Part shown: positions 37,921 to 45,469 of the stretch, piece by piece
How the letters are laid out: each line of letters opens with the position of its first letter
Position numbering within the stretch: the stretch's first letter is position 1
From: a virus
Taxonomy: Duplodnaviria; Heunggongvirae; Uroviricota; Caudoviricetes
Length of the DNA: 64,000 nt
Strand: one strand, 5' to 3'
Virus record (IMG/VR): IMGVR_UViG_2939127364_000001
Translations under genes and position numbers: made by a program
The notes under the pieces: model-generated
Databases searched by the model: none
Told to the model about the DNA's origin: nothing
Seen by the model: only the letters and a program-made list of their open reading frames with translations

Positions 37921-38442
37921 GTGAGCAATACAACGATAGAGATTTTCTCTGGAGAGAAAGATTATGATCTAAACGGTTTTGATTGCGGCGAAGAGTCACT
38001 AAACGCCTTTTTAGCCAACCACTTAAAAAGGCAGCATGAGGGAAAAATTCTTCGTGCTTATGTGCTTTGCACTCAAGAAGAAAGGCCAAAAGTGTTAGGA
38101 TATTACACTTTGTCAGGTAGTTGTTTTGAAAAGGAGTCCTTACCTTCAAGAAGCAAACAAAAGAAGGTTCCTTATCGGAATGTTCCAAGTGTTACTTTGG
38201 GTAGGCTGGCTTTGGACAAGTCCCTTCAAGGTCAAGGATTTGGCTCAATGCTTGTAACACATGCAATGCGCGTTGTGTACAATGCATCTCTTGCTGTAGG
38301 CATTCATGGACTTTTCGTTGAGGCGTTAAATGACAAAGCCAAGGCGTTTTATAAAAGTTTAGACTTTATCCAGCTGGTTGGTAACAACGAGCGTTCTTTG
38401 TTCTATCCTACAAAATCTATCGAAAAATTGTTCGAAGAATAA
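37921..38442 (+). CDS. GNAT acetyltransferase toxin (TacT/AtaT-like)
   Basis: 173 aa, GTG start 8 nt after antitoxin stop; GNAT motif LQGQGFGSMLV; antitoxin-toxin order typical. Confidence 0.7.
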   Translation: MSNTTIEIFSGEKDYDLNGFDCGEESLNAFLANHLKRQHEGKILRAYVLCTQEERPKVLGYYTLSGSCFEKESLPSRSKQKKVPYRNVPSVTLGRLALDKSLQGQGFGSMLVTHAMRVVYNASLAVGIHGLFVEALNDKAKAFYKSLDFIQLVGNNERSLFYPTKSIEKLFEE

Positions 38443-38474
38443 TGTGTTCCCCTCATTTGAGGGGAACTTCGACA

Positions 38475-38660
38475 TCACCAACCACAAACCCTCTCTCCCA
38501 TCGTATTGTGAAAAAGGATTTGGCGTTCGGTTTCTTCAGTCATTACATCATTATTGCTGATATAGATAGGCTCAGCCCCATCGCAGAACAACACGCTGGT
38601 GGTTTGTGGTTTAATGACGCACCCACTTATCATACAACTCACGATGAACGGCAGAAGCAT
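38475..38660 (-). CDS. Rz1-like o-spanin lipoprotein candidate
   Basis: Frame overlapping 3' end of Rz-like gene; MLLPFIVSCMISGC with lipobox ISGC. Confidence 0.4.
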   Translation of the reverse strand: MLLPFIVSCMISGCVIKPQTTSVLFCDGAEPIYISNNDVMTEETERQILFHNTMGERVCGW

Positions 38661-38862
38661 CTTTCTGACGTATTTTACTGCTCGTCTCATTCACCACTTT
38701 CACTGTGTTTTGAAGTCGTTTTCTGTCTTCCTGTTTTGCCTTCTCTTCCATTGCTCGTCGCGCCGCATTCCCGCCCATCGTGTAAGCGCCGACAAAAACG
38801 AAAAGAACGGCAGCCAGCGTAATCAAAGCAACTTTTAGCTTTGTCATCAGGCTGCCTAGCAT
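38611..38862 (-). CDS. Rz-like i-spanin
   Basis: 83 aa; N-terminal transmembrane helix then charged coiled-coil region; follows endolysin-like gene. Confidence 0.5.
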   Translation of the reverse strand: MLGSLMTKLKVALITLAAVLFVFVGAYTMGGNAARRAMEEKAKQEDRKRLQNTVKVVNETSSKIRQKDASAVHRELYDKWVRH

Positions 38863-38863
38863 A

Positions 38864-39583
38864 TTAGACCATCCCTTTCTGGTGTCTTCTTACCTGCGAC
38901 CAGGCAATGAATCCGGCCACAACAATAGTGGCAATGCCGAAGATGATGCGTACTGTATCCCCGCTAGAGATATGACCTTGTGCCTTATCCATAGCAGCGG
39001 AAACCTGCGGCATAACATCGGCCAGCTGCGCCAGACCAATACCTGCTGTAACAGTTGCGCCTGCGGTTTCTTTAGTTACAGGAACAGCCTTCACGGTTTT
39101 CACCGGCTTAACAACGCCAGCTCGACGCAGACCTTCCTCAATAACTTCTGCCGCATACCAGGTGTTCAGCGTTTTTAGCGGGCCTCGGCCATTCTCGTGG
39201 CGAATGATTGCCTCAACCAAAGGTCGAAGGATGTCGTAATCATGCAGATCGATGATCATGTCTGCGGTTACACCAACGGCTTTAGACACCTCATTAATGT
39301 AGGCGTCAGTATTGTTTTCATTCGGCGGTGCCCAGCGTTCAATAACTTCACGAATGGTATCGATACTTGTGCCGTCTTTTGCGCGACGTTTATCGTGGTA
39401 GGTAATTAGAGTCACCGCCAGCGCACGAATCCCCCAAACAGGGTCTTTAAACGTGCAAAAGCGCGGTTCGTCTGGATTCGCAACCAGACCTTGCCACGGT
39501 GATCCTTTATCAAGATTACCGGGGTTATTATTACGAATGCCTCTCGGGGTCTTCATCCTTGATCTCCTGTTATTGCAGTCCAC
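38864..39583 (-). CDS. Putative endolysin / lysis protein with C-terminal hydrophobic segment
   Basis: 239 aa; position between holin-like and spanin genes; C-terminal IIFGIATIVVAGFIAW; enzymatic family not determinable by eye. Confidence 0.35.
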   Translation of the reverse strand: MDCNNRRSRMKTPRGIRNNNPGNLDKGSPWQGLVANPDEPRFCTFKDPVWGIRALAVTLITYHDKRRAKDGTSIDTIREVIERWAPPNENNTDAYINEVSKAVGVTADMIIDLHDYDILRPLVEAIIRHENGRGPLKTLNTWYAAEVIEEGLRRAGVVKPVKTVKAVPVTKETAGATVTAGIGLAQLADVMPQVSAAMDKAQGHISSGDTVRIIFGIATIVVAGFIAWSQVRRHQKGMV

Positions 39584-39905
39584 TTTTTACGCCATACGCG
39601 GCTAACCCCAAAAGCAGTGCGGTAATAATGAACGACGTTATTTTAGAAACAATGCCGCCAAAGAACCCACTTGAGATGGAATCTAACCGGTTAAGGAGTT
39701 TGTCCAGATTGGAGTGTTGAATACTATGTTGCGCCGGGGTCATATCACCAAAGTAGGTTTTCAGCTGATCATTGACCTCCTGGCCAATTTCTTCACGTAG
39801 CTCTTTACCTAATTTGCCAACAACCTCCCGAGCAACGATCGCGGCAATACGCTCAACTTGCTCTGTTGTAACGCCCGCCATCTCGTTCGACATGTTTTCC
39901 TCCAT
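39570..39905 (-). CDS. Putative holin
   Basis: 111 aa; C-terminal transmembrane segment ITSFIITALLLGLAAYGV; first gene of lysis cassette. Confidence 0.35.
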   Translation of the reverse strand: MEENMSNEMAGVTTEQVERIAAIVAREVVGKLGKELREEIGQEVNDQLKTYFGDMTPAQHSIQHSNLDKLLNRLDSISSGFFGGIVSKITSFIITALLLGLAAYGVKSGLQ

Positions 39906-39967: not shown

Positions 39968-40756
39968 TTACACATGAGCGCCGTAAATTGCCCCAGCTTT
40001 AGTCCATGTAGGCGCGTTGCCAGTTACGGCTTTACCAGCTGCCCCGCCGCCGTACATTGTCCCCAATCGTCCAGTAGCAGCAGCACCAGCGGCACCTACA
40101 TTACCTCCACTGCCGCATGTGTATTGAACAGCGGTAGAGCCGATCAAATATTGAGCACCAATCCCGGGAGCGGTTAGAGTGCCAGAAGTTGCCGCACGCG
40201 AAGTTGAAGCTGGCGGCCTTGTAGTGTTTGCAACACCAAACGGGCGACCGCCACCACCCATACCACCATCGGCTGAGTTACCGCCGCCACCACCGCCACC
40301 ACCGGCAATAGCGCCGTTATTGGTTATTCTTAAACGAGTCCCAATCCCGTTGTTAATAGCAGTGCCACCGGCAGCACCGCCACCTTTAACGCCACCATTA
40401 CCGCCACGGCCATAGACAGTTACACCTGCGTTGATTACAAGGCTGATATAAGAGTTGGTAAGTGAACTCGGGAAATCTAAACATGGCACGCCGCTACTGG
40501 ACGACACCAGATCCCCTGTAATGGTAACAACGACTGGCGTCGCCCCCTGGGATTTTAAATAGTTGATCAGTGTGTCTTTGTTGTAGTTATGATTCGCACC
40601 GATGCTGTACTGAACTTCTTTAGATCGCCCGGCCATTTGAGACATTGAACCAGCCGCTGGCAGTTGCACCGCCGTTCGAGCCGCACTCATCCATCTCTGG
40701 CCTGTCACACTGACAGCCGAAGACCCAATCCAACCGGGAACACCGACAATTGGCAC
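39968..40756 (-). CDS. gp38-like tail fiber adhesin with glycine-rich motifs
   Basis: GTG start at 40756 preceded by AAAGGAG; N-terminus PIVGVPGWIGSSAVSVTGQRWMS and GRSKEV...TGDLVSSS...GRGGNGG...NNGAIAGGGGGGGG resemble recalled T2-type gp38; directly downstream of long tail fiber. Confidence 0.6.
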   Translation of the reverse strand: MPIVGVPGWIGSSAVSVTGQRWMSAARTAVQLPAAGSMSQMAGRSKEVQYSIGANHNYNKDTLINYLKSQGATPVVVTITGDLVSSSSGVPCLDFPSSLTNSYISLVINAGVTVYGRGGNGGVKGGGAAGGTAINNGIGTRLRITNNGAIAGGGGGGGGNSADGGMGGGGRPFGVANTTRPPASTSRAATSGTLTAPGIGAQYLIGSTAVQYTCGSGGNVGAAGAAATGRLGTMYGGGAAGKAVTGNAPTWTKAGAIYGAHV

Positions 40757-40822
40757 ATCTAATCTCCTTTTTGATGTGAATATCCTGAATTGGTGAGGGT
40801 GGCCCCTCACCATTCACCTTGA

Positions 40823-43800
40823 TTACATTTTTGCCTTCAGTTCGCGCACTTCCTCGCGCAGCTCTTTGACAGCCTCGACCAACATGCCGATAACGCCGTT
40901 GTAGTTAAGACGCAGACGAGGCTCTCCTGACTGATCGTTATGGTCAACCGTTACCAGTTCAGGCTGAACATTCTGGACGTCCTGAGCGATGAGGCCGCCA
41001 GACTGCTCATAACGGCCACAGACCTGAATCTCGTAGAGAACACCTTCGATCTGCTCCAGCTTGTCGAGCGCCCGCTCAATTTTGCGAATATTGCGCTTAC
41101 TACGGCGGTCGGAACGGATGTAAACGTCGTTAAAGCTACCATTCCCACCACAAACCCAAGTGCCGTCATTTTGCAAATAAGCATTAGCATCAGTGCCATT
41201 ATCAGTACGTGAGTTGTTTATCATGTAAAAGCCGAATTGGCTGTTACCTAAACCACCAACAAAAAATTTCCTATCAGCATGGTCTTGTCTTAACAATGCC
41301 TGAGCAGAACTAGTTGATACCTGATTAAGACCAAAAATAACGTTTTGATCTCGCATGCTAATCCAAGAACCTGAGTTGCTGTTAATAGAAAACCTGTTTG
41401 CATATACCCAGGAATTGGTTTTTATATCTCCAGTAACGTTGACAGGCTTATTGCTTTGAACACTCCCACTCGTAAAGCGTAAAACTTGGGTGTTATTGGC
41501 GTAAACATCAAGAATGCCATCTCCATTTTGTTTTAATCCGGTATCGCTATCACCCAGAACAATTGAGTTCCCACCAAGACCATTGACCACACCCAGCCCA
41601 AGACCACCGTCAACAACAGCACCATTGCCCATTGCTACTCTGCCATTAGTGAGATTTACATAAAATGGACGAAGCGAACCTATATCACCATTTTCTCCCT
41701 GGTCTTTTGCTGTCGGGATAAGGTAAAAATTATTTTCGGAACGGCGAAAAATCATCCCGTATGCCGCATCGTAAATGCGCAACCCATCCGTAGAGCGGAT
41801 CTTAAGCTGTCCGGACATCGTACCGCCGCTGTTTTTCATAAATAGCGCATCAATCCAGCCTGCAAATCCCGACTTATTAATGTATAAATTTCCATCATTT
41901 GCCAGAATGCCTCCACCTTGCGTCTTGAGGGGCTGACTCACATTTTGCAGCGTCAGCACACCAGTCATTGTTCCGCCAGAAATCGGTAACGCACCGACAT
42001 CAGCCGCTGTGGGTTTATGAGCAGTGGTATAGACCTGCGCCCAACCAGACCAATTCGCTGTCGAAGTATCACGGCGTGAACGAACATAAACCGGTGCATG
42101 AGCACCATTCGTTCCGCTCCAGCCAATAAGCAACTCGCCCTCACCAGCAGCACTCGCACCTTTCATGTGCAATACGTTGCCATACGTGGTCGGGTAGCTA
42201 TTGTTGTACGCCTCATACATTTGAATGCCAGCAGTGCCTTGAGTAGAGCCACTTAACGCCGTTACGGGCCCGCGTGATACCAATGTATTAATGTTGATAT
42301 CGCCTGAGCCATCAAACTTAACACCATTGATGTTTCTAGCAGTTTGCAACTTCGTAGCTGTTGAAGCATTACCGTTCAAGCTACCATTGATGCCGCCAGT
42401 AACATTGAGTCCATTACCAATGGACACAGCACCGCTGGTATTATTAATTGTAATCGGTCGCAAACCGTTCCATGAACCTAATGTGTCTCCTGATGCTGTT
42501 AGCATGAAATATGTGTTCGACCCATCATTACGGATAAAGAACCCAAAGCTACCGTAAGCAATGCGGAAACCATTTGCATATTTTGAAATGATCTCGCCAG
42601 AAGATGTCAAACCTCCAGATAATGTCCCACCGGTAAGAGGTAATGCACCAACGTCAGATGCTGTTGGTTTATTTTTCGTGTTATATACTCTTCGCCATCC
42701 TGGAGAATAATCTGTGCCATTAAATACATAGATAAACTCCGCATTAGTGAGAGCACCAGAGACACTCGTCGTTGTGGCCGTTGTTATACGGATCGTATAA
42801 TTGTTTGAGCTACTACCGTTATTAAATACCTCTATAACAGCTCCTGCCAATGGAATAACGCCACAACCAGTTTCACTATTTGGTATGGTTGCACTATTGG
42901 CATAGGCCCACGCACATCGAGCAATCCATGACCTTGTGGTAAACGCGCCGTTATTTTGCAATAACGTCACTAACTGTGCTGTTGTTATTGCTCCGCCATT
43001 ACTTCCTGTAGTTAACCAACCAGTAGGAGATGCCGGGCAACCTATATCGGCAGGCCCCAACGATATATTTCTTGTGCCATCAAACGCAATACCGTTGATG
43101 GTTCTTGCGGTTTGCAACTTCGTAGCAGTAGCCGCGTTGCCCGTTGTATTCTGATTACCAGTCGTATTAACACCTGGCAAATTAATATTCGCAGTACCAT
43201 CAAAGCTCACGCCGCCGATAGTTCTTGCCGTCTGAAGTTTTGTAGCAGTTGCAGCATTACCAGTGGTGTTCTGATTACCCGTAGTATTTACACCTGGAAG
43301 GTTGATATTTGCAGAACCGTCGAAACCAACTCCACCGATAGATCTTGCCGTCTGCAATTTCGTTGCTGTACTTGCATTACCATTTAATGTTCCGGTGATC
43401 CCACCAGTAACAGACAACGGACCTGAAACTGTTCCTCCGGTTGTTGGCAGTGCTCCAATATCTAACGGCGTCGGTTTCTGATGTGTGCTATACATCGTAT
43501 AAACAACACCATCGGTAACGCTGGAAGGCTTACTCGCTGAATATGTTGGCGATGTATAAATAGAAACTGTCGCATTTGCAGTACAATCCCAATGGATATT
43601 TACACGAGTCGCATAATTGCCAATCTCAACGTAAATATCATATGTATCGCCGGATGTGTTGATCCAGGCGAAATTCGTTAATCCGACAGCTGTACGCTTC
43701 CACAAAGCACCTGTAATCCCTTTGGGGTTTCCATTGCCTGCTCGTAGAACCAGTTCTGAAATACCTGCCTGATGTGGGGAGCCAACGTTAAACCCTGCGC

Positions 43801-45469
43801 CACCAATCAGGCTTATGTAAACCACGGAACTGGCTTGTGGCATGGTTACAGTTGCCAGCTTGAACCATCCGGCACCACCACTAAAAGACATTGTTATTGA
43901 ATTTAAAGTACCAATATCTTTCGGCGTTAATGTGATATCCGCAGTCAGTGCTTTACCGTTAACTTTTCGGTTAGATGGTACCCTGCCATTCGCATTGTCA
44001 TTGGCTGCTTTAACTGCCTTCGGTGTCGCGGCAAGCGTTTCAGATGTGCTGTTGGTTGCACTACTGAGCTGGACTATCCCCTTTTTCGTCGTGCTCGCAT
44101 CCTCAAGCGCCACGGCGGATGCAATATCCTCTGCCCGTTTTGCCGCTGTCTCAGCGCGCGTTGCTGCGGATTCTGCCGTACTTTTGCTCTGTGCTGCCGC
44201 CGTCGCACTGCCAGCAGCCTCTGTTGCCTTCGTGGATGCCGTCGTGGCGCTGCCCTTCGCTGCTGACGCCTGTCTGGTCGCCTCATCTTTTGAAGCAGAC
44301 GCAGATGATGCCGATGACGCTGCCGAACTGGCGGACGATGCCGCTGCCGTTTTTGAGGATTCTGCACGGGTTTCCGACGCTTTCGCGTTCGTTTCGGATG
44401 TCTTCGCTGCGGAAGCTGACCTCGCTGCTGCGCTGGCCTGTTCAGTGGCTTGGCCAGCCTTCGTTGTGGCTGTTGAAGCAGACGATGCGGCACTTTCTGC
44501 CGATTTTCCGGCGGCGGTGGCACTGGCTGAGGCCTGCCCGGCACTTGTTGACGCGGCACTGGCAGACGACGCAGCCGCTGTTTTTGAGCCTGCCGCAGCC
44601 GAGGCGCTCTGTCCCGCTGCCGTTTCAGAAGACCTGGCGTTCGTCTCGGACGTTTTTGCCGCCTTCGCGGAATTTCCTGCCGCCGTTGCCGAGGAAGCGG
44701 CATTACTGGCGCTCGAGGCTGCGCTCGTTTCTGATGATTTCGCTGCCTCTTTTGAGGCCGCCGCATCCCGGGCTGAGGTGGCAGCTTCTGACGCCTTCGT
44801 GGTCGCGGTGGATGCAGAAGTGGCTGCAGATTTTTGTGACGCTGCAGCATTCGTTTCAGATTTTTTCGCAGCAGTTGCACTCGCACTTGCGGCACTTTGT
44901 GAGGATGCCGCAGCGGATGCACTTTGAGACGCTTGAGAGGCTTTTTCTCCAGCAGTATTGGCGCTTTCTGCTGCTGCGGCAGCACTGGCCGCCGCCTCAC
45001 GAGCTTTGTCGCCAGCAGCATCAATCGCGTCAGTGTTATTTTTATACCACTCAACGTTTTCGTTGTGCTCGTTGACGATCTGCATTAGCGGCTTAACGGT
45101 CACTTCTGTACCGTCTTCACGCTCGATTGTCACCTCATCCAGCGCAGTCAACCAACTGCGTATGGACTTGGAATCAGCCGACATACGCGACATTAGCGCA
45201 GTAAAGCGCGCGCTAAACTGTGTTAAGTCGCCTTCATAGGTCGTAATGATTCGGCACGGAACCTCAGACTGAGTTTCGCCGGTATAAGGTTCTGAGAGAA
45301 CAATATTCGTATCGCTTATTACGCGCTTGATCTCGTACAGCTTATTGTCGGGGCCAATGACGATCATCCCCGGCAACACACCATTAGCTGTTACGTTCCA
45401 GGCTGTCCCTGCCCCAACCAGAGTATTGCTACCCTGTGTAAATGTGATAGTACCTTCCCTGTACCACAT
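40823..45469 (-). CDS. Long side tail fiber protein
   Basis: 1548 aa; Ala/Ser/Thr-rich low-complexity region, tandem tail-fibre repeats (ATATKLQTARTIGGVSFDG), C-terminal SDRRSKRNI segment resembling S74 intramolecular chaperone domain. Confidence 0.85.
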   Translation of the reverse strand: MWYREGTITFTQGSNTLVGAGTAWNVTANGVLPGMIVIGPDNKLYEIKRVISDTNIVLSEPYTGETQSEVPCRIITTYEGDLTQFSARFTALMSRMSADSKSIRSWLTALDEVTIEREDGTEVTVKPLMQIVNEHNENVEWYKNNTDAIDAAGDKAREAAASAAAAAESANTAGEKASQASQSASAAASSQSAASASATAAKKSETNAAASQKSAATSASTATTKASEAATSARDAAASKEAAKSSETSAASSASNAASSATAAGNSAKAAKTSETNARSSETAAGQSASAAAGSKTAAASSASAASTSAGQASASATAAGKSAESAASSASTATTKAGQATEQASAAARSASAAKTSETNAKASETRAESSKTAAASSASSAASSASSASASKDEATRQASAAKGSATTASTKATEAAGSATAAAQSKSTAESAATRAETAAKRAEDIASAVALEDASTTKKGIVQLSSATNSTSETLAATPKAVKAANDNANGRVPSNRKVNGKALTADITLTPKDIGTLNSITMSFSGGAGWFKLATVTMPQASSVVYISLIGGAGFNVGSPHQAGISELVLRAGNGNPKGITGALWKRTAVGLTNFAWINTSGDTYDIYVEIGNYATRVNIHWDCTANATVSIYTSPTYSASKPSSVTDGVVYTMYSTHQKPTPLDIGALPTTGGTVSGPLSVTGGITGTLNGNASTATKLQTARSIGGVGFDGSANINLPGVNTTGNQNTTGNAATATKLQTARTIGGVSFDGTANINLPGVNTTGNQNTTGNAATATKLQTARTINGIAFDGTRNISLGPADIGCPASPTGWLTTGSNGGAITTAQLVTLLQNNGAFTTRSWIARCAWAYANSATIPNSETGCGVIPLAGAVIEVFNNGSSSNNYTIRITTATTTSVSGALTNAEFIYVFNGTDYSPGWRRVYNTKNKPTASDVGALPLTGGTLSGGLTSSGEIISKYANGFRIAYGSFGFFIRNDGSNTYFMLTASGDTLGSWNGLRPITINNTSGAVSIGNGLNVTGGINGSLNGNASTATKLQTARNINGVKFDGSGDININTLVSRGPVTALSGSTQGTAGIQMYEAYNNSYPTTYGNVLHMKGASAAGEGELLIGWSGTNGAHAPVYVRSRRDTSTANWSGWAQVYTTAHKPTAADVGALPISGGTMTGVLTLQNVSQPLKTQGGGILANDGNLYINKSGFAGWIDALFMKNSGGTMSGQLKIRSTDGLRIYDAAYGMIFRRSENNFYLIPTAKDQGENGDIGSLRPFYVNLTNGRVAMGNGAVVDGGLGLGVVNGLGGNSIVLGDSDTGLKQNGDGILDVYANNTQVLRFTSGSVQSNKPVNVTGDIKTNSWVYANRFSINSNSGSWISMRDQNVIFGLNQVSTSSAQALLRQDHADRKFFVGGLGNSQFGFYMINNSRTDNGTDANAYLQNDGTWVCGGNGSFNDVYIRSDRRSKRNIRKIERALDKLEQIEGVLYEIQVCGRYEQSGGLIAQDVQNVQPELVTVDHNDQSGEPRLRLNYNGVIGMLVEAVKELREEVRELKAKM

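Follow-up and report, generated by a model that had tools for sequence, protein, structure and literature searches.

A class of phage endolysins exemplified by Enc34 ORF39 combines a PHA02564 catalytic domain with a C-terminal transmembrane domain, and the same layout is found in BSPM4 M4Lys, Chi gp38, the Siskin endolysin, and the protein described here. The Enc34 catalytic domain is muralytic, with Glu131 as the catalytic residue and Tyr95 and Trp79 positioning the substrate, and the C-terminally anchored architecture has been described as restricted to Chivirus and certain related viruses (PMC8943055). M4Lys alone lyses E. coli in a manner that requires its C-terminal membrane domain and is not blocked by the Sec inhibitor azide, and mass spectrometry indicates N-acetylglucosaminidase activity (PMC7143992). 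Its predicted topology is N-out/C-in with one helix (PMC7143992), at odds with the N-in/C-in, two-helix prediction published for the Siskin endolysin.

Salmonella phage SSU5 and Escherichia phage Cyrano, the latter being pLF82, which makes virions (PMC9928086), provide the closest described cassettes. Both records already carry holin, endolysin, Rz, and Rz1 labels at the corresponding position (SSU5_026-030 and CYRAN_22-25). SSU5 has also been listed among overlapped-architecture spanins, with its o-spanin in the Chi family and its i-spanin as a singleton (PMC6139136).

We analyzed a 64,000-nt stretch of viral DNA (IMG/VR record IMGVR_UViG_2939127364_000001; hereafter, the window), which carries a lysis cassette at 38475-39905. 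The four genes share the same orientation on the minus strand, and all four ORFs were recovered there (39570..39905, 38864..39583, 38611..38862, and 38475..38690). The initial annotation had proposed the order holin-like gene, C-terminally anchored endolysin, Rz-like i-spanin, and overlapping lipobox o-spanin, and both the sequence and the homologues agree with that order, with the first gene in the holin position. All four genes, their order, and their strand are shared with SSU5 and Cyrano. At the nucleotide level, the cassette is 99.1% identical to Cyrano and 82% identical to SSU5, and protein identities to SSU5 are 95% for the first gene (SSU5_026), 93% for the endolysin (SSU5_027), 74% for Rz (SSU5_028), and 74% for Rz1. 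In SSU5, unlike in the window, three additional small genes, cor among them, precede the cassette, and other genes follow it.

For the first gene, ATG 39893 is the most likely start, as GGAGGA lies 6 nt upstream and ATG 39905 falls within that Shine-Dalgarno. The 239-aa length first given for the endolysin belongs to a GTG-extended ORF; the most likely start is ATG 39556, which has AGGAG upstream and gives 230 aa. The resulting lengths of 107 aa and 230 aa match the annotations of Cyrano and SSU5. Features are collected in Table 1.

Table 1. Features of the lysis cassette and its immediate downstream border, with positions in the window
Feature	Position	Strand	Basis
107-aa tail-anchored membrane protein	39570..39893	minus	ORF and Shine-Dalgarno; phrog_5093; "holin" in Cyrano and SSU5 records
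230-aa endolysin, Enc34 ORF39/M4Lys type	38864..39556	minus	PDB 7Q47; phrog_873 "endolysin"; Shine-Dalgarno
Endolysin catalytic domain, residues 1-150	39107..39556	minus	Alignment to 7Q47
Endolysin C-terminal two-helix membrane domain	38888..39067	minus	Hydropathy, charge counts; conserved with Chi and BSPM4
83-aa Rz-like i-spanin	38611..38862	minus	phrog_1026 "Rz-like spanin" (2e-24); hydropathy
71-aa Rz1-like o-spanin precursor	38475..38690	minus	phrog_1275 "Rz-like spanin" (4.7e-25); lipobox
Terminator-like GC-rich hairpin GTTCCCCTCAAATGAGGGGAAC	38446..38467	minus	Consensus scan and sequence; pattern match only

Scans of the four proteins with Pfam, NCBIfam, and PADLOC gave nothing above curated cut-offs, and the informative searches were those against PHROGs and PDB sequences. 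In the PHROG search, the first-gene product matched phrog_5093 (2.2e-68) and the endolysin matched phrog_873 (9.3e-89), alongside the spanin matches in Table 1. The cassette is conserved in 407 PLSDB plasmids, and together with the PHROG matches, this places the four-gene pattern, as read from sequence, far beyond chance. The predicted functions are taken from homologues at 55-60% identity. Overall, these comparisons make it highly probable that an SSU5-like Escherichia phage-plasmid, essentially Cyrano/pLF82, has its late lysis cassette at this locus, encoding an Enc34/M4Lys-type glycosidase and overlapped spanins that would act through the mechanism proposed below. A Gp38-type adhesin gene lies directly before the cassette and a TacA/GNAT toxin-antitoxin pair after it. 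The hairpin, 8 nt past the Rz1 stop codon, separates the cassette from the convergent GNAT-toxin gene, which ends at 38442.

The last two genes are predicted by homology to encode a two-component spanin of overlapped architecture, as first proposed. The Rz-like i-spanin has an N-terminal transmembrane helix at about residues 5-29 (hydropathy maximum, 2.33 at residues 11-29), followed by a charged periplasmic part of 54 aa with a net charge of +6, and shows only weak similarity to Chi gp39 (E=0.04). The Rz1 ORF shares 80 nt with the 3' end of Rz in another frame and runs 136 nt past it. Its product carries a signal peptide with a basic N-terminus, a hydrophobic core, and a lipobox, ISGC, at residues 21-24 (Cys24), which fits the consensus [LVI][ASTVI][GAS]C (PMC6139136). 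The +2 residue is Val, with no inner-membrane retention residue there. The mature o-spanin would be 48 aa long with 2 prolines, and it is 41-51% identical to BSPM4 gp40 and Chi gp40. As for periplasmic cysteines available for intermolecular disulfides, the o-spanin has two beyond the lipidated one and the i-spanin has none. The Rz1 CDS annotated in Cyrano is 39 aa long and starts past the lipobox, an annotation that truncates the protein.

The endolysin, which the initial annotation could not assign to a family by eye, is an Enc34 ORF39/M4Lys-type enzyme. Phmmer against PDB returned 7q47_A ("Endolysin," Enc34) at E=6.8e-54, with query residues 3-151 aligned to chain residues 6-168, and this match settles the fold of the catalytic domain at the level of sequence homology, predicting it to be all-helical and lysozyme-alpha-lobe-like. 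Residues W75, Y86, and E121, in the motifs ERWAPP, DAYIN, and RHENG, align with Enc34 Trp79, Tyr95, and catalytic Glu131, respectively (the 7Q47 chain and the Enc34 paper differ by 1 in their numbering). BLASTP gave 55% identity to Chi gp38 and BSPM4 M4Lys over residues 4-228 of 230, membrane domain included, and by homology the protein is a predicted peptidoglycan glycosidase of this type. The C-terminal hydrophobic segment noted initially is present as a strong helix at residues 204-223 (19-residue window maximum KD, 2.07 at residues 204-222). The anchor had been called unusual for an endolysin, whereas it is a published hallmark of this class (PMC6498227, PMC7143992, PMC8943055). Ahead of the strong helix, residues 164-187 form a second one that is only weakly hydrophobic (mean KD, 0.88), which counts against the mechanism proposed below; a loop at residues 188-203 joins the two, and a basic tail, RHQKGMV, follows. 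The linker before helix 1 has 6 K/R (net +4), the loop has a net charge of 0, and the tail has a net charge of +2. When the C-terminal 85 aa were searched alone for fusions to other catalytic domains, only fragments of close relatives were returned. An N-terminally anchored SAR endolysin was also considered and rejected for lack of a hydrophobic helix at the N-terminus, where the sequence MKTPRGIRNNNPGN is hydrophilic; hydrophobic segments occur only past residue 160.

The catalytic domain also forms the N-terminus of tail or internal virion proteins (PDB 9vvp Gp29, plus matches to tape-measure and "internal virion protein" entries), and PHROGs places phrog_873 in its "head and packaging" category, both of which would suit a virion-associated lysin acting at entry instead of an endolysin. 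We regard this as very improbable, given that the gene is flanked by the holin-position gene and the spanin genes, away from the structural module, and that its product is collinear along its entire length with M4Lys, an enzyme that lyses cells from within, and carries a C-terminal membrane domain in place of a structural-protein extension. There is also no other candidate for the endolysin: the window contains the catalytic domain only once, and SSU5 has no other annotated endolysin. The call of an endolysin with a peptidoglycan-hydrolase fold thus stands. The first-gene product opens with a hydrophilic, helical N-terminal stretch of about 77 aa and has the conserved motif YFGDMTPAQHSIQHSNLDKLLNRLD, a single hydrophobic helix at about residues 79-103 by hydropathy, and a 5-aa tail, KSGLQ. 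Only the secondary-structure pattern of an AlphaFold2 model was used here (10-sequence alignment; mean pLDDT, 45). The stop codon of the gene lies 13 nt ahead of the endolysin ATG, so that, as expected of a holin, the product is a small membrane protein encoded next to the endolysin. The initial "holin-like" call is one of position: no match was found for the protein to recognized holin families in Pfam, NCBIfam, or annotated PHROGs, none of its 33 relatives matched a holin family, and phrog_5093 itself is labeled "unknown function." A family member is the first lysis gene in 11 of 11 independent cassettes of metagenomic relatives. From its location and sequence, the protein may be a holin, or it may be a holin accessory or regulator.

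That it is a genuine holin, and the only one, is plausible but somewhat short of an even proposition. It would represent a new topological class with a single C-terminal helix and its bulk in the cytoplasm, and its lesion would free or activate a tethered endolysin whose membrane domain merely anchors it. The classical position directly upstream of the endolysin and the labels in SSU5 and Cyrano agree with this, as do the small size of the protein and the very strong conservation of its one transmembrane helix. Like holins, the relatives precede at least four unrelated endolysin types. In the window and in one relative's cassette (L007), there is no small membrane protein besides the family member and the spanins. 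Elsewhere in the family, however, it is not the sole candidate hole-former, as recognized holins sit beside it in L010 (phrog_8226 "holin," 4e-10) and L013 (PF13272 Holin_2-3), and five Peptidase_M15_3 cassettes and a GH108 cassette encode a further small protein bearing one or two transmembrane helices. The tail, with one Lys, also differs from the extended, highly charged C-terminal tail typical of holins, and the homologous M4Lys lyses cells without any partner.

With no holin-family match, and with a holin or small membrane protein adjoining in relatives, the protein could therefore act as an accessory to a holin or as a regulator of lysis timing, comparable to an antiholin or an XhlA-like partner. 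The hole-forming activity would then reside in the C-terminal membrane domain of the endolysin itself, and lysis would proceed without a canonical holin; we hold this to be a serious possibility, though not a probable one. Recognized or probable holins adjoin in most cassettes of the distant relatives, although most of these second holins were called by hydropathy only. The cytoplasmic juxtamembrane motif is conserved, with G49, H56, and H60 invariant in the phrog_5093 alignment, which suggests specific interaction or sensing rather than a generic pore. In BSPM4, lysis by M4Lys requires the membrane domain and not ORF_37, which slightly delays lysis (PMC7143992), but this independence from a holin was observed under heavy over-expression and could be artefactual (PMC8943055). 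Moreover, the 107-aa protein is not homologous to Chi/BSPM4 gp37 (for Chi gp37, no BLASTP match and an hhalign probability of 1%), so the ORF_37 data are not directly transferable. PBSX XhlA, a membrane protein needed alongside a distinct holin, XhlB, and the XlyA endolysin (PMC5589764), offers a functional precedent, against which none of the 33 family members gave a Pfam XhlA match. More tentatively still, phrog_5093 could found an as yet undescribed family of tail-anchored proteins that regulate lysis or partner holins, and in SSU5-like elements it would partner a self-inserting, C-terminally anchored endolysin. If true, SSU5-like plasmids, which are widespread, would lyse their host without a canonical holin. 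When distant phrog_5093 members were run by tblastn against cultured phages, the only matches were SSU5-like elements.

We propose that the four genes would be transcribed together behind the tail-fiber genes, with transcription stopping at the hairpin. The endolysin would build up tethered to the inner membrane via its C-terminal helices; the charge distribution would favor an N-in/C-in hairpin, in which case the catalytic domain would stay cytoplasmic. At a programmed time, a membrane lesion or depolarization would let the catalytic domain reach the wall. This lesion may involve both the membrane domain of the endolysin and the 107-aa protein, acting as the holin or as its accessory or timer. 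The catalytic domain would then cut the glycan strands, and a complex of Rz in the inner membrane and Rz1, an outer-membrane lipoprotein, would disrupt the outer membrane.

The cassette itself is already known, as the SSU5 and Cyrano records label its genes, a crystal structure and lysis data exist for the endolysin class, and the spanins have been catalogued. The anchored endolysin looks unusual, yet its class has been solved structurally and tested in related phages, which makes the finding genuine but unremarkable. What goes beyond published annotation is that the phrog_5093 "holin" may be an accessory or regulator. In RefSeq plasmid records, the cassette genes are labeled no more than "hypothetical protein" or "membrane protein," and a complete lysis module thus goes unrecognized in hundreds of enterobacterial "plasmids." The locus touches on two questions, namely how a C-terminally anchored endolysin gains access to the wall, which concerns the whole class (PMC8943055), and what job the phrog_5093 protein performs. 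Both could conveniently be addressed genetically with SSU5-like phage-plasmids in E. coli K-12-compatible hosts.

Compared with more distant systems, the cassette shares individual features with several. Overlapped spanins of the P2 LysB/LysC type and those with a Chi-family o-spanin (Kongari et al. 2018) likewise have an i-spanin with an N-terminal transmembrane helix, whereas the i-spanin here is very short and free of cysteine, and is paired with an o-spanin that has only 2 prolines and 2 non-lipidated cysteines. PBSX XhlA of Bacillus subtilis is a small membrane protein encoded first in its lysis cassette, a gene order resembling that of the phrog_5093 cassettes. XhlA is tail-anchored, with a coiled-coil followed by a C-terminal helix. 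It belongs to a Gram-positive system and has no detected sequence relationship with phrog_5093, and we take the resemblance as a lead. SAR endolysins that work with pinholins (phage 21, P1 Lyz) are an analogy, as they are tethered to the inner membrane before lysis and make a large-hole holin dispensable (PMC8943055); their anchor is N-terminal rather than C-terminal, while the enzyme here lacks an N-terminal signal and lysis by M4Lys is azide-insensitive. Closest in the endolysin itself are Chi and BSPM4, in which the enzyme occupies the same cassette slot and shares the helix-loop-helix membrane domain and basic tail (M4Lys and Chi gp38), and the o-spanin is homologous. The gene upstream of the endolysin is unrelated, its product having a C-terminal transmembrane helix here and an N-terminal one in Chi gp37, and the element is a phage-plasmid of ~108 kb as opposed to a 59-kb Chi-like virulent siphovirus. 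SSU5-like elements, whose records already say endolysin, therefore widen the range of the Enc34-type architecture.

The lysis cassette comprises four tightly packed, co-oriented ORFs on the minus strand, exactly as the initial annotation listed them, flanked by a Gp38-type adhesin gene and a TacA/GNAT pair. The adhesin gene lies directly upstream of the cassette. SSU5 has three small genes at that junction (outer-membrane protein, membrane protein, and Cor) that are missing from this one, and it carries other genes where the window has the TacA/GNAT pair, of which the toxin is a TacT/KacT-like GNAT acetyltransferase. GGAGGA precedes the ATG at 39893, and the ATG at 39905 falls within that Shine-Dalgarno sequence; the first product is therefore 107 aa. 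Likewise, AGGAG before the ATG at 39556 gives an endolysin of 230 aa, not the 239 aa first proposed, and both lengths match annotated homologues in Cyrano and SSU5. The 119-aa protein encoded after a ParA-like ATPase had no Pfam match and is labeled "RelE/ParE putative toxin" in Cyrano, though its gene position suggests a centromere-binding partition partner rather than a toxin.

Features of the lysis region and of related loci
Feature	Sequence	Position	Strand	Details
Tail fibre and adhesin region	Window	39968-45469	-	1548-aa tail fibre precedes adhesin; long Ala/Ser-rich low-complexity stretch; repeated 'GNASTATKLQTAR.I.G..FDG' units
Gp38-type tail-fibre adhesin	Window	39968..40813	-	281 aa; PF05268, 8.4e-70; glycine-rich stretches
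107-aa protein	Window	39570-39893	-	phrog_5093
Rz (i-spanin)	Window	38611..38862	-	83 aa; phrog_1026, 2e-24
Rz1 (o-spanin)	Window	38475..38690	-	71 aa; phrog_1275, 4.7e-25
GC-rich hairpin	Window	38446-38467		After Rz1, between lysis and TacA/GNAT transcription units
TacA/GNAT toxin-antitoxin pair	Window	37644..38442	+	Convergent with cassette, immediately downstream; antitoxin PF08681, 5.7e-26
ParA-like ATPase, then 119-aa protein	Window	36301-37325	-	ATPase 221 aa; stop and start codons overlap
CYRAN_25 (Rz1 CDS)	Cyrano locus	3176-3295		39 aa; window 38475-38594
SSU5_029/030 (Rz1 CDSs)	SSU5 lysis locus	2956-3186		Two alternatives
SSU5_101	Other SSU5 locus	36898-37596		"Lysozyme inhibitor LprI family protein"
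M4Lys-like protein	Metagenomic locus L007	4368-5063		231 aa; phrog_873, 2.8e-29

The endolysin had not been assigned to a family by eye because Pfam and NCBIfam do not recognize it; scans of both yielded no family. It was placed by PHROG (phrog_873 "endolysin," 9.3e-89) and by a match of residues 3-151 to PDB 7Q47 "Endolysin" (E=6.8e-54), the catalytic domain of Hafnia phage Enc34 ORF39, which is muralytic and distantly related to GH73 and GH23 enzymes (PMC8943055). The key Enc34 residues, catalytic Glu131 plus Tyr95 and Trp79 (PMC8943055), all have counterparts (E121, Y86, and W75), and by homology the protein has a peptidoglycan-hydrolase fold. A protein without such a fold and a separate endolysin elsewhere would have counted against the initial annotation; no other endolysin is annotated in SSU5, and no second copy of the domain was found in the window. 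Including its C-terminal membrane domain, the whole protein shares 55% identity with Chi gp38 and with M4Lys of phage BSPM4. M4Lys expressed alone lyses E. coli, a lysis that the Sec inhibitor azide does not block and that is lost without the transmembrane domain, and its catalytic domain takes GlcNAc off muropeptides (PMC7143992). The C-terminal anchor, initially considered unusual, is indeed present, but this architecture was first seen in phage Siskin (PMC6498227), and full-length relatives occur in ~180 phage records. The catalytic domain alone is found in roughly 600 further records, often within virion proteins.

Hydropathy places two helices in the endolysin, a weaker one at residues 164-187 and a strong one at 204-223. 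The linker ahead of helix 1 has a net charge of +4, with six K/R; the loop between the helices is neutral and the tail basic. Under the positive-inside rule, this pattern favors a hairpin of N-in/C-in topology, the arrangement predicted for Siskin (PMC6498227), which would keep the catalytic domain cytoplasmic until the membrane is breached. The less favored possibility is a one-helix N-out topology, as in the M4Lys paper (PMC7143992), with which the weak hydrophobicity of helix 1 (mean KD 0.88) is consistent.

Downstream, Rz has an N-terminal transmembrane helix by hydropathy, is unusually short, contains no cysteine, and equals Chi gp39 in size. Rz1 starts 80 nt ahead of the Rz stop codon and extends 136 nt beyond it, with a signal peptide and a lipobox (ISG|C) that agrees with the published consensus. 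E. coli lipoprotein sorting follows the established +2 rule, under which the Val at +2 implies that Rz1 would be sorted to the outer membrane. Homology supports these spanin features: Rz1 shares 41-51% identity with BSPM4 gp40 and Chi gp40, and Kongari et al. placed SSU5 among spanins of overlapped architecture, with an o-spanin of the Chi family and a singleton i-spanin (PMC6139136). PHROG matches, hydropathy, and homologues together support the original interpretation of an endolysin with a C-terminal hydrophobic segment, an Rz-like i-spanin, and an overlapping lipobox-bearing o-spanin.

The first gene, initially called holin-like, is a different case. Its 107-aa product has one C-terminal helix followed only by KSGLQ, and its sole match is phrog_5093, "unknown function." Among cultured phages it is confined to SSU5-like elements, and it is unrelated to its positional counterpart in Chi. 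We searched 1.8 billion representative proteins with a profile, obtained 53 relatives, and aligned 32 of these with the window protein. All 33 follow one plan. A hydrophilic, helical N-terminal part is followed by the motif YFGDMTPxQHxxQHxRxDKLLxxxD, in which G49, H56, and H60 are invariant, and the C-terminal transmembrane helix leaves only a very short tail. The invariant residues are juxtamembrane, ~20 residues ahead of the helix, and persist down to ~25% overall identity. The protein is tail-anchored, with its bulk presumably cytoplasmic.

In all 11 independent contexts of relatives, the phrog_5093 member opens the lysis cassette. The next enzyme is Peptidase_M15_3 in five (L008/9, L011, L014/15, L018/19, and L020), GH108 plus PG_binding_3 in L012, a phrog_669 endolysin in L010, an SLT-like enzyme with an N-terminal transmembrane helix in L013, a SAR-lysozyme-like fragment in L017, and an M4Lys-like endolysin with a transmembrane domain in L007; on the short contig L016, no endolysin was identified. 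Nearly all cassettes other than L007 also encode a further small membrane protein. L010 has phrog_8226 "holin" (4e-10) and L013 has PF13272 Holin_2-3; in the M15_3 and GH108 cassettes, the enzyme gene is followed by one for a 58-91-aa protein with one or two transmembrane helices, and L011 adds a truncated 46-aa ORF with a single helix. Two of the proteins in this last group match phrog_8494. These contexts tie the family to lysis, often beside a recognized or probable holin, and the holin label of the window gene is purely positional. The L007 M4Lys-like protein, likewise preceded by a phrog_5093 gene, keeps the C-terminal two-helix membrane domain, but VMYNG replaces the catalytic RHENG motif and ERWAPP is missing; this protein may be a membrane-active derivative with no catalytic function.

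The 107-aa protein could be a single-helix holin of new topology, a reading to which we give somewhat less than an even chance. We rate about equally the possibility that it acts as an accessory or timer for a holin, in which case the lesion in SSU5-like cassettes would come from the membrane domain of the endolysin itself. The latter reading fits the ability of M4Lys to lyse cells unaided (PMC7143992) and has a functional precedent, by analogy only, in PBSX XhlA (PMC5589764), although Pfam gave no XhlA match across the 33 family members. Lysis would begin with late co-transcription of the four genes and build-up of a putatively membrane-tethered glycosidase. A timed membrane lesion, which we infer to involve the 107-aa protein and the endolysin membrane domain, would then allow glycan strands to be cleaved and the spanins to disrupt the outer membrane.

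Across the lysis region, the window shares 99.1% identity with Escherichia phage Cyrano and 82% with Salmonella phage SSU5, and 407 PLSDB plasmids match, mostly from Escherichia, Enterobacter, and Salmonella. Cyrano is pLF82, an SSU5-like phage-plasmid of E. coli LF82 that makes virions (PMC9928086). Both phage records label holin, endolysin, Rz, and Rz1; in RefSeq plasmid records, these genes appear as "hypothetical" or "membrane protein." The Cyrano Rz1 CDS begins past the lipobox, which leaves out the signal peptide, and SSU5 has two alternative CDSs; biologically, the 71-aa ORF that carries the ISGC lipobox makes the most sense. SSU5_101 lies distant from the SSU5 lysis cassette. The cassette is already known: near-identical phage records annotate it, and its endolysin class has been characterized structurally and functionally since 2019-2022. 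The phrog_5093 role is a modest lead, and our reading of the 107-aa "holin" is the only departure from existing annotation.
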